From NCBI RefSeq assembly GCF_004010195.1, contig NC_057710.1, positions 122,357,950 through 122,421,949 of the forward strand: a stretch of DNA of 64,000 bases, given 5' to 3'. Below are positions 10,821 through 59,108 of the stretch, one piece after another. The stretch comes from Chiloscyllium plagiosum. Lineage: Eukaryota. A program made the position numbers and the translations under genes. How positions within the stretch are numbered: the stretch's first letter is position 1; each line of letters opens with the position of its first letter. The notes below the pieces were generated by a model, which had not been told where the DNA came from, ran no database searches, and saw only the letters and a list, made by a program, of their open reading frames with translations.

Positions 10821-11048
<228 letters not shown>

Positions 11049-12930: not shown

Positions 12931-13080
<150 letters not shown>

Positions 13081-19868: not shown

Positions 19869-19932
19869 CCTCCTCCCCAAATCTATGACAAGCAGCTTGA
19901 TGAGAGAGAACACAGTATAGATGAATGGAAAG
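19869..19932 (+). CDS. MAPK10: MAPK10/JNK3 internal exon (64 nt)
   Basis: ttttatag|CCT CCT CCC CAA... = PPPQIYDKQLDEREHSIDEWK; donor G|gtaatg. Confidence 0.97.
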
Positions 19933-22741: not shown

Positions 22742-22819
22742 AATTAATCTACAAGGAGGTAATGGATTTTGAAGAGAAAACTAAAAACGGTGTTGTGAAG
22801 GGACAACCCTCTCCCTCAG
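22742..22819 (+). CDS. MAPK10: MAPK10/JNK3 penultimate coding exon (78 nt)
   Basis: gttacag|aa TTA ATC TAC... = [26 protein letters not shown]; donor TCA G|gtaaat. Confidence 0.96.
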
Positions 22820-23335
22820 GTAAATCCAGTAACCCTGTACAGAGATAATCACAACCGTCTCACTCAGGTAAATCCAGTAACCCTGTACAGAAATAATCAC
22901 AACCGTCTCCCTCAGGTAAATCCAGTAACCCCGTACAGAGATTGTTACAACCCTCTCCCTCAGGTAAATCCAGTAACCCTGTACAGAGATTGTCACAACC
23001 TTCTCCTTCAGGTAAATCCAGTAACCCCGTACAGAGATTGTCACAACCCTCTCCCTCGGGTAAATCCAGTAACCCTGTACAGAGATTGTCACAACCGTCT
23101 CCCTCAGGTAAATCCAGTAACCCTGTACAGAGATTGTCACAACCTTCTCCTTCAGGTAAATCCAATAACCCTGTACAGAGATTGTCACAATCGTCTCCCT
23201 CAGGTAAATCCAGTAACCCCGTACAGAGATTGTCACAACCGTCTCCCTCAGGTAAATCCAGTAACCCTGTACAGAGATTGTCACAACCCTCTTCTTCAGG
23301 TAAATCCAGTAACCCTGCACAGAGATAATAACAAC
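22803..23335 (+). repeat. 48-bp minisatellite, 11 copies, each containing the exon 3' end and the GTAAAT donor
   Basis: Unit ACAACCCTCTCCCTCAG GTAAATCCAGTAACCCTGTACAGAGATTGTC; GT at 22820, 22868, 22916, 22964, 23012, 23060, 23108, 23156, 23204, 23252, 23300. Confidence 0.98.
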
Positions 23336-37647: not shown

Positions 37648-37664
37648 CACAGGTGCAGCAGTGA
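37648..37664 (+). CDS. MAPK10: MAPK10/JNK3 last coding exon, short (p46-type) C-terminus via the upstream acceptor
   Basis: ttctcag|ca CAG GTG CAG CAG TGA = AQVQQ*, the known short JNK tail produced by an acceptor 5 nt upstream. Confidence 0.9.
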
Positions 37665-37792
37665 ATAGCAGCGAAAGTCTTCCTCCATCCTCATCAGTAA
37701 ACGACATCTCATCTATGTCAACCGATCAAACCCTTGCTTCAGACACTGACAGCAGCCTGGAAACTTCAGCAGGACCGCTTTGTTGTAGGTGA
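37653..37792 (+). CDS. MAPK10: MAPK10/JNK3 last coding exon, long (p54-type) C-terminus
   Basis: cacag|gt GCA GCA GTG... = [46 protein letters not shown]; the SSESLPP...TDQTLASD...CCR tail is JNK3-like; TGA at 37790-37792. Confidence 0.96.
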
Positions 37793-37834
37793 CTAACCGT
37801 CTGCCTGCGGGACCCCTTCTTCTTTCGAAAATGA
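37790..37834 (+). other. MAPK10: Putative stop-codon readthrough extension of JNK3 long isoform (xLTVCLRDPFFFRK*)
   Basis: TGA CTA A context then 13 open codons to TGA 37832-37834; resembles the mammalian MAPK10 readthrough extension. Confidence 0.7.
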
Positions 37835-39166
37835 TGCAAGTACTAAATACTCAGCACAGCTCTCTGGAACTGAGCTATTTAAAAAGGAACGTGGAAGTAC
37901 TGATGCTAAAATATTATGTCAAAATGCTTTGCTTATCTCATTCCAATGAAACTTGACGTTCATCAAGAGCATTAGGGAGTGTCATTTCACATGCAAATAT
38001 GTGATTATAAACTGGCTCCCTGTGGTACTTGCTTTCGCAATGCAAGGTGAGCAGGAAAGGCACAGCATTATAGTTAAAACTAAATGCACTTTTGTCTTCT
38101 CAAAGTTGCAGTATGTGTCCCTTCTTTCACTTATTATGTATTTGCTGACTATAAACATCTTGGCAAAATATATTCCTGTAAATGGCCACATGTATATTAC
38201 CTACCAAACTCTTCTTAAATTTATGCTACATGATAATAACTATAAATATGACAGAAAACGCAATTATGTTATTCCTTTGAGCAATTAATTTCATTGCAGT
38301 TCAATCCACCAAATTAACTTCTGCGAGTCTAATTAAAGGGACATTCAGAAACCAAAACCATTTCTGATCATGCAAAGACTGTCCACTGTAATGTCAACGA
38401 CTTTGTTTTGATTCTGACTGCATCCTTGAATGGTTAAAGAGTCCGTATTCTTTGTAACTTTTTAAATAAGGTTGCAGTCCAAATATTCCAATCCACCTCA
38501 TGTTTTAAAATCCTTAGGGTACAATTTTCATAAAAGGATCCATTGTCTGTAGATTGATTTTGGGTTAAAATGGTAAAGTGGTAGCTATGTTCTGTTATAC
38601 TTTTTTGTCATTTACTCTAAACTGAATTGAAAACCCTTACATAAATTATGCAAGGAAGTACATGATATTTGGACATGATATTTTGACATTATCAATTAAA
38701 AAAAAATACATTTGATTAAGAAAAGCAAACTCAGCCAGAGCTGTGATCTGTATTGAAAAATCCTGGAATTCCTGCTCACACATGCAATTCTATGCTGTGG
38801 TTGAGGTGGCGGGAAATTTTGGCCAGTAATGTAAAAGACATATACATGTAAAACAATTGCACACCTTGACATAGTTGGCTGCAGTCTTTAGTTGCACTTG
38901 CCTGCAGTTGTGCATGATCAAACTTCCAAATATATTCCTTTAGAATGGAAGGTAAAATATACTAATAGGTACTGTAGGCTGTTATGTGGTACATTATGTA
39001 TGCCACCAAGGACCTGAACAACATTGCTGCATTCTTAAACTCCTTTATGCTGAACCTGCATGGACTTGTAATGTGTTTACTCTGTTCCCCAGCAAATAGA
39101 GTATTTTGAACTGTTATAAATTGCATTAACTAGAATCATATTTATTACCTGTCCATTGGAAATTAA

Positions 39167-58372: not shown

Positions 58373-58616
58373 TTACTGTATCCAAATGGTGTTACTTCTA
58401 TCCGGTCTTCGTGTCTCCACAGTAAGGTCACCAAACGTCGAGAAAAATTGCTCCATTTCCTTTTGCAACATCTCATTGCGTTTCTCAGCATCCTCCCGGG
58501 CACGCTCTGTGTTCCTCATCTTTATTTCCACCATGGTGTACTTCTTCCTTTCCTGGTCCAGCTCATCGTGAAGTGTCATCACTTCTGACTCCAGCTCAAT
58601 GTTTCTTTGCTCCAAA
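58373..58616 (-). CDS. ARHGAP24: ARHGAP24 (FilGAP) last coding exon, C-terminal coiled coil
   Basis: Minus strand ttcttcttctactttgcag|T TTG GAG CAA... = (S)[80 protein letters not shown]; the NTIWIQ end and adjacency to MAPK10 favour ARHGAP24 over ARHGAP22/25. Confidence 0.94.
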
Positions 58617-59108
58617 CTGCAAAGTAGAAGAAGAAATGAACAAAACTGACGGGGAAATGATCAAAGATTTGTGTTAGTTCTGAACGATATAACTATCAGT
58701 TTGCATGTTGATCTCACTCCCTTTGCAAAGACCAAAGTTTATAAATGCTACCTAAACATGAAACGTCTGTTGAGACGAAAATGACATTCACAATAGGGTG
58801 ATTGGTTAATGGTAGTGGGCTAAGATGGGGAGTTGGATTGAAACAGGAGTAGGCCATTCAGCCAGTTGAGCCTGTACTGTCATTCAGTGAGATAATCGCT
58901 GGCCTGTGGCATAACTCCATATCCCTTAATATCTTTGCTTAACAAAGAAAAAAAATCTGAATTTATTTGTTAGGAAGTAAACCTGATGTTGTCAATTGAC
59001 TATCTGTTGTGTAAACAAACTTATTTTCTGTCAGAATTTAGTTCAACAAAAATGAATATTTAATTGGTTTTGTAATGTATTGATACATAGAAGAACTGTG
59101 GGGTGGAG

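Follow-up and report, generated by a model that had tools for sequence, protein, structure and literature searches.

A probable elasmobranch orthologue of the known MAPK10/JNK3 stop-codon readthrough element

The window, by which we mean the whole 64 000 nt stretch of DNA that was analysed, contains five plus-strand exons of a MAPK10 (JNK3) gene, the upstream four all having AG/GT borders. A kinase-domain exon at 10852..11034 (IDQWNK...HNKLK) has its best PDB matches in MAPK10, and its 60 residues are all identical to those of a ray protein (P0011, Narcine bancroftii MAPK10); the exon at 12944..13068 (SQARDLL...EVEA), within the Pkinase stretch, is identical to P0011 at 41/41 residues, and that at 19869..19932 (PPPQIY...DEWK) is identical at 21/21 residues both to P0011 and to a chimaera protein, P0038. 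The penultimate exon (22742..22819, LIYKEV...QPSPS) ends in a phase-1 donor, from which contigs of relatives pass to position 37648. The long, p54-type last coding exon begins at a downstream acceptor, occupies 37653..37789, ends GPLCCR and matches human JNK3 (3tti) with an E value of 9e-19. Taken together, the five exons are identical to the ray MAPK10 at 191 of 192 residues and to the chimaera protein at 190 of 192, whilst identity across the last exon is 44-45/45 for MAPK10, 35/45 for MAPK8 and 30-32/45 for JNK2-type proteins. An earlier note, made from the sequence alone, had taken the gene for MAPK10 of a cartilaginous fish, and this assignment is upheld: the exons are closer to ray and chimaera MAPK10 than to JNK1- or JNK2-type proteins, and the PDB searches, which ranked MAPK10 top, agree. 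Judged from these comparisons, the gene is elasmobranch MAPK10/JNK3, the clade being read from the named relatives.

Several features of the locus stand apart from the stop codon that is our main subject. The penultimate MAPK10 exon has its 3′ end and its splice donor inside the repeat unit of a 48-base tandem array at 22803-23326 (10.9 copies, 92% matches), in which the donor 10-mer occurs ten times. Because in-frame stops follow the first donor, the frame is kept open by that donor alone, and the relatives' contigs splice at the first-donor position. At 37778-37783, one Gly codon has been lost ahead of the palmitoylation-type CCR. The Gly (GPLGCCR) is missing elsewhere, among 124 scored proteins, only in the ray P0011, and the contigs of three relatives are without the 3-base insertion that would restore it, whereas the chimaera P0038 keeps it; on these alignments the Gly loss is an elasmobranch trait. 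On the minus strand at 58376-58620 lies a coiled-coil exon that ends NTIWIQ, the last with coding sequence in a neighbouring gene oriented tail to tail with MAPK10. Pfam and Atlas searches did not settle the identity of this gene, which may be ARHGAP24, the usual neighbour of MAPK10.

Two acceptors, at 37648 and 37653, lie five bases from each other at the start of the last exon. Use of the upstream one gives the 5-base-longer start of the short, p46-type form (37648..37664, plus strand), which ends AQVQQ at a TGA (37662-37664) in the other frame, so that any readthrough of the stop after GPLCCR is limited to the long form, the only form in which that stop is in frame, a restriction that the earlier note had overlooked. 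The long-form acceptor is intact in the window, and the database proteins of the ray and the chimaera are of the long form. Four of 24 listed sequencing runs, guessed to be RNA, were used to look for relatives' transcripts, and three of them gave a contig (organisms D, E and F). In each of the three contigs the penultimate exon is spliced to the upstream, short-form acceptor, and none shows a long-acceptor junction, in a type of assembly from which rarer variants drop out. The dual-coding last exon of JNK p46/p54 is said to be preserved across vertebrates (bioRxiv 10.64898/2026.05.28.727796), and the 5-base acceptor shift in the window is identical to the alternative acceptor of MAPK8/9/10.

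In the long form, the last sense codons read TGT TGT AGG (37781-37789), and are followed by a TGA (37790-37792) in the leaky context UGA-CUAA (37790..37796). Thirteen sense codons lie in frame beyond this stop (37793..37831; CTA ACC GTC TGC CTG CGG GAC CCC TTC TTC TTT CGA AAA), which translate as LTVCLRDPFFFRK, and a second in-frame TGA closes the extension at 37832..37834. All of this runs on from the frame of the long-form last exon of MAPK10, on the plus strand. When the coordinates were re-read, the earlier description of this arrangement proved exact, including its remark that the base at +4 is A instead of G. The window thus departs in two places from the signature of the MAPK10 element, with A where G is usual at +4 and a synonymous TGT-AGG where UGC-AGG is the rule for the last two codons. 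Position 37786, a T in the window, is a C in the three relatives, in the fish-like metagenome contig L001 and in the human context; as all three relatives have C, the T appears to be private to the species, the individual or the assembly, and could be an allele or an assembly error.

By simple counts within the window, such an arrangement is uncommon: 19 of its 1391 plus-strand TGA triplets (1.4%) are followed by CTA, 2.3% have exactly 13 sense codons after them, and the 12-base context occurs once against 0.05 expected, a count that 5 of 100 shuffles also reached. Orthologous conservation is a stronger argument than these within-window chance counts, and it rules out chance or an assembly artefact as the source of the element. 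L001 reads TGC AGG TGA CTA G, then 13 codons and a TGA in all. Between the window and L001 the extension is identical at 29/39 bases and 8/13 residues with both TGA codons in register, whereas the next 100 bases downstream are identical at 43/100 (Fisher p=0.0012). The codon differences, from few DNA sequences, number five non-synonymous and three synonymous, so that conservation relative to L001 falls short of showing constraint at the protein level.

A second body of evidence comes from read-through translations left in protein databases by gene callers for which TGA encodes Trp. The protein set (n=149) was assembled from the matches of four queries, namely the best 120 of 368 for one and all 11, 36 and 23 for the others. 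In all 12 JNK3-type calls of this kind the second Trp comes after 13 residues, in the register of the window, and the residues follow the pattern L-x-x-C-L-R-N-P-x-F-F; this set is biased, since only a gene with TGA as its first stop can yield such a call and the tail was part of three of the four queries. Two of the 12 (P0001 and P0002) have Thr at position 2, which requires A at +4. The human extension as given in the earlier note agrees with several of the calls (for example P0004, P0005, P0006 and P0009).

The relatives' contigs add a closer comparison, as none of the three contains an indel between 37643 and 37932. Organism D, for which all seven changes are listed, retains CTAA and the entire tail. 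For organism E, with 38 of 48 changes listed, three changes fall in the 45 bases, one synonymous and two that together turn the Asp into Ser. The +4 A is probably retained in organism E, and the first 18 bases past the stop seem to be free of changes, the order of the list apparently placing the other changes further downstream. At 3/45 in the extension and 26/219 in the UTR, the difference in organism E is not significant (p=0.43). Over 370-470 bases, the 3′ UTR itself (37835-38300) can be aligned with organisms E and F at 80% or better. From these alignments, the 13-residue readthrough frame is orthologous to the known MAPK10 element, with frame, length and second stop conserved.

That element has a substantial published record. 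Mammalian MAPK10 was correctly named in the earlier note as a UGA-CUAG readthrough gene, in agreement with the available text of Loughran 2014 (PMC4132726). In that text, the extension is traced back to the common ancestor shared with lampreys and is always 13 residues long, the post-stop CUA is invariant, G stands at +4 in 68 of 73 orthologues and is missing in 5, the last two codons are always UGC-AGG, the eight bases that follow CUAG show conservation of the nucleotides instead of the amino acids, and seven downstream bases are able to pair with the final codons and with the stop. The conserved length on which the earlier note relied is borne out by the 12 calls and by L001, but the origin in the jawed-vertebrate ancestor that it drew from them gives way to the lamprey-deep origin already in PMC4132726. 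The locus is one further orthologue of a readthrough element reported across vertebrates in 2014, and as it stands this finding matters little, the deeper date having been in print since then.

Published readthrough efficiencies vary with the assay. MAPK10 gave about 14% in a fused reporter (PMC4132726), a design that yields overestimates (PMC5513072), and later values are about 4-5% in HeLa cells (PMC12233894) and 1.2-1.8% in a mutational scan (bioRxiv 10.64898/2026.07.14.738498). As far as the available part of that scan goes, 764 of 765 mutants at +1 to +4 lowered readthrough, and the sole mutant to raise it was CUAA in human MAPK10 (1.76 to 2.28%), so that the reporter comparison of CUAA with CUAG called for in the earlier note already exists in the human context, with CUAA the higher. 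In the same source, 4G>A takes part in 6 of 13 strong interactions with a sign that varies with the background, the mean loss of human readthrough in mutants at +8/+9 is 0.82 points, and the combination of 4G>A with 8C>A is the one double mutant in +1 to +10 that raises readthrough. The CUAA variant singled out by this 2026 scan occurs naturally in the window, which so offers a ready test of epistasis within the readthrough signal.

Set beside human and vertebrate MAPK10 (PMC4132726), the window has the orthologous gene, the last codon AGG, UGA-CUA, 13 residues and a second UGA in common, as well as 8 of 13 tail residues shared with calls of the type LAACLRNPAFFRR. It differs in having A at +4, T at +8 (C in human), TGT as the penultimate codon (TGC in human), no Gly ahead of CCR, Asp in place of Asn and a terminal Lys. 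The core signal and the near-cognate decoding presumed to act on it are those of the UGA-CUAG class at large (AQP4, OPRK1, OPRL1, MDH1, LDHB, VDR), whereas the distal context is gene-specific in what is available of the scan (bioRxiv 10.64898/2026.07.14.738498).

The locus is best explained as the orthologue, in an elasmobranch, of the MAPK10/JNK3 programmed readthrough element already known, a reading to which we assign a probability of about 0.85 and under which readthrough in this species is inferred. In mRNAs spliced to the downstream acceptor, the CUA(A) past the UGA would weaken termination, and a near-cognate tRNA would be inserted in a small fraction of cases, carrying Trp, Arg or Cys as it does at other mammalian UGA readthrough sites; the ribosome would then append LTVCLRDPFFFRK up to the second UGA. 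Insertion of Trp, Arg, Cys or Ser at UGA has been described in mammalian systems (PMC4973966), and of Trp and Arg in MDH1 (PMC5133446), in the parts of these papers available to us. For this species the share of readthrough is probably one to a few percent. The three departures from the human context, together with the epistasis of 4G>A and the lower readthrough of the +8/+9 mutants, mean that the context in the window could be weaker than the human one; given the T at +8 and the background-dependent sign of 4G>A, the level is not closely predictable. Against this reading stand the short acceptor in all three relatives' contigs, the preponderance of non-synonymous differences from L001 and the lack of significantly better conservation of the tail than of the UTR in organism E, as well as the full-length extended JNK3 going undetected in the 2014 study, where the construct expressed poorly (PMC4132726).

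To our knowledge, no targeting signal or function has been assigned to the JNK3 tail, and a search of the open-licence literature, judged by titles and the starts of abstracts, found no paper on its function. Palmitoylation of JNK3 takes place at the C-terminal CCR and is needed for axonal vesicle targeting with DLK according to the available text of one report (bioRxiv 10.1101/2020.11.17.387191). The likeliest use of the tail, with its extra Cys, three Phe and basic end, may be to retune this CCR-dependent membrane and vesicle targeting, a suggestion that we put forward tentatively and at less than even odds.

A short hairpin can be drawn over the stop at 37784..37809 (plus strand, -11.2 kcal/mol), with a z score of -3.06 on 30 hand-picked bases and 0.34 on 69 bases. 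A downstream stimulatory structure was rejected, since shuffled sequences fold as well as the 108 bases past the stop do (z 0.67), and A-to-I editing of the stop was set aside in view of the short stem and the G 5′ of the A. We consider it unlikely that the 45 bases owe their conservation chiefly to an RNA element, such as a short hairpin over the stop or a protein-binding site, with readthrough occurring and the peptide mattering little. Such an account would fit the nucleotide-level conservation of the eight bases after CUAG and their pairing with the stop region (PMC4132726), all seven pairs of which form in both the window and L001, the changes turning G-C into G-U pairs and +4 lying in the loop, as well as the five non-synonymous against three synonymous codon differences from L001. 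The same seven-pair register is weak in the window (-4.1 kcal/mol, compared with -10.0 kcal/mol in L001), the 69-base folding score is unremarkable, and a stem over the stop could hardly persist whilst the ribosome decodes it; moreover, the length and second stop are fixed, and the C-L-R, P and F-F residues, distant from the hairpin, are retained in all 12 calls.

It is less probable again that the tail acts as a hydrophobic C-terminal degradation signal, by which readthrough would remove a small share of long JNK3 and produce no new working form. The tail does have a hydrophobic end (PFFFRK), destabilizing readthrough tails are known from MTCH2 (PMC7863902) and tagged MAPK10 constructs expressed poorly (PMC4132726). 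Yet removing 1-5% of a protein would be a weak reason to hold a 13-residue sequence fixed for more than 450 million years. Least credible of all, and in our estimation very improbable, is that the element is decaying in this lineage into a relic with little readthrough. The three differences that separate the window from the human context over 23 bases could be read in this way, as could the short splice form in the relatives' contigs and the penultimate TGT, which breaks the reported 'always UGC-AGG' (PMC4132726) and is absent from the three relatives; however, frame, length and both stops are intact relative to the bony fish L001, CUAA is tolerated in the human context (bioRxiv 10.64898/2026.07.14.738498), and the changes listed for the extension in organism E come to one silent substitution and a single residue replacement. 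The programmed readthrough element remains the reading that we prefer.

The same contigs yielded a lead concerning JNK1 (MAPK8). A second contig of organism E (run X18 record 3) aligned on 37715-37776, and its 5′ overhang reads SSSSVNDVSS, in which NDVSS is a motif that marks the JNK1-type proteins P0133, P0135 and P0138. In this contig the long-form frame ends LGCCR and continues TGA CTA GCC, a full UGA-CUAG, within 30 letters of one contig. Leu comes first after the stop in both JNK1-type TGA-as-Trp calls, compared with none of six JNK2-type calls. The JNK1-type tails are unlike each other and unlike that of JNK3, the tail peptide being conserved in JNK3 only. When the JNK1-type P0133 was used as a protein query, its 23 matches contained no additional read-through JNK1 call, no paper on JNK1/MAPK8 readthrough was found in the open-licence literature by titles and the starts of abstracts, and the human MAPK8 stop context was not found in the supplements of PMC12233894 and PMC4359377 or in the available text of PMC4359377 and PMC5868278.

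A leaky UGA-CUA(G) older than the JNK1/JNK3 duplication, with MAPK8 an unrecognized readthrough gene at least in cartilaginous fishes, would account for this pattern; we rate it as somewhat doubtful, since the 30 letters from one relative and two first residues make the pre-split context a lead only. Under such a history, selection on JNK3 would have reached the higher-readthrough CUAA more than once, in elasmobranchs and in the teleost-looking P0001 and P0002. If JNK1 does share the leaky stop, vertebrate JNKs would have inherited from their ancestor readthrough just past a palmitoylation-type CCR end, and a comparison of the paralogues could offer a way into the function of the JNK3 tail.

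A further observation concerns the MAPK10 proteins P0011, P0013, P0014, P0016, P0017, P0018 and P0121, which run past the CCR into unrelated residues. To judge from their sequences, they look as if spliced at the AG-GT within the last codon and the stop, where AGGTGA resembles a splice donor, and may be either isoforms or gene-model artefacts.
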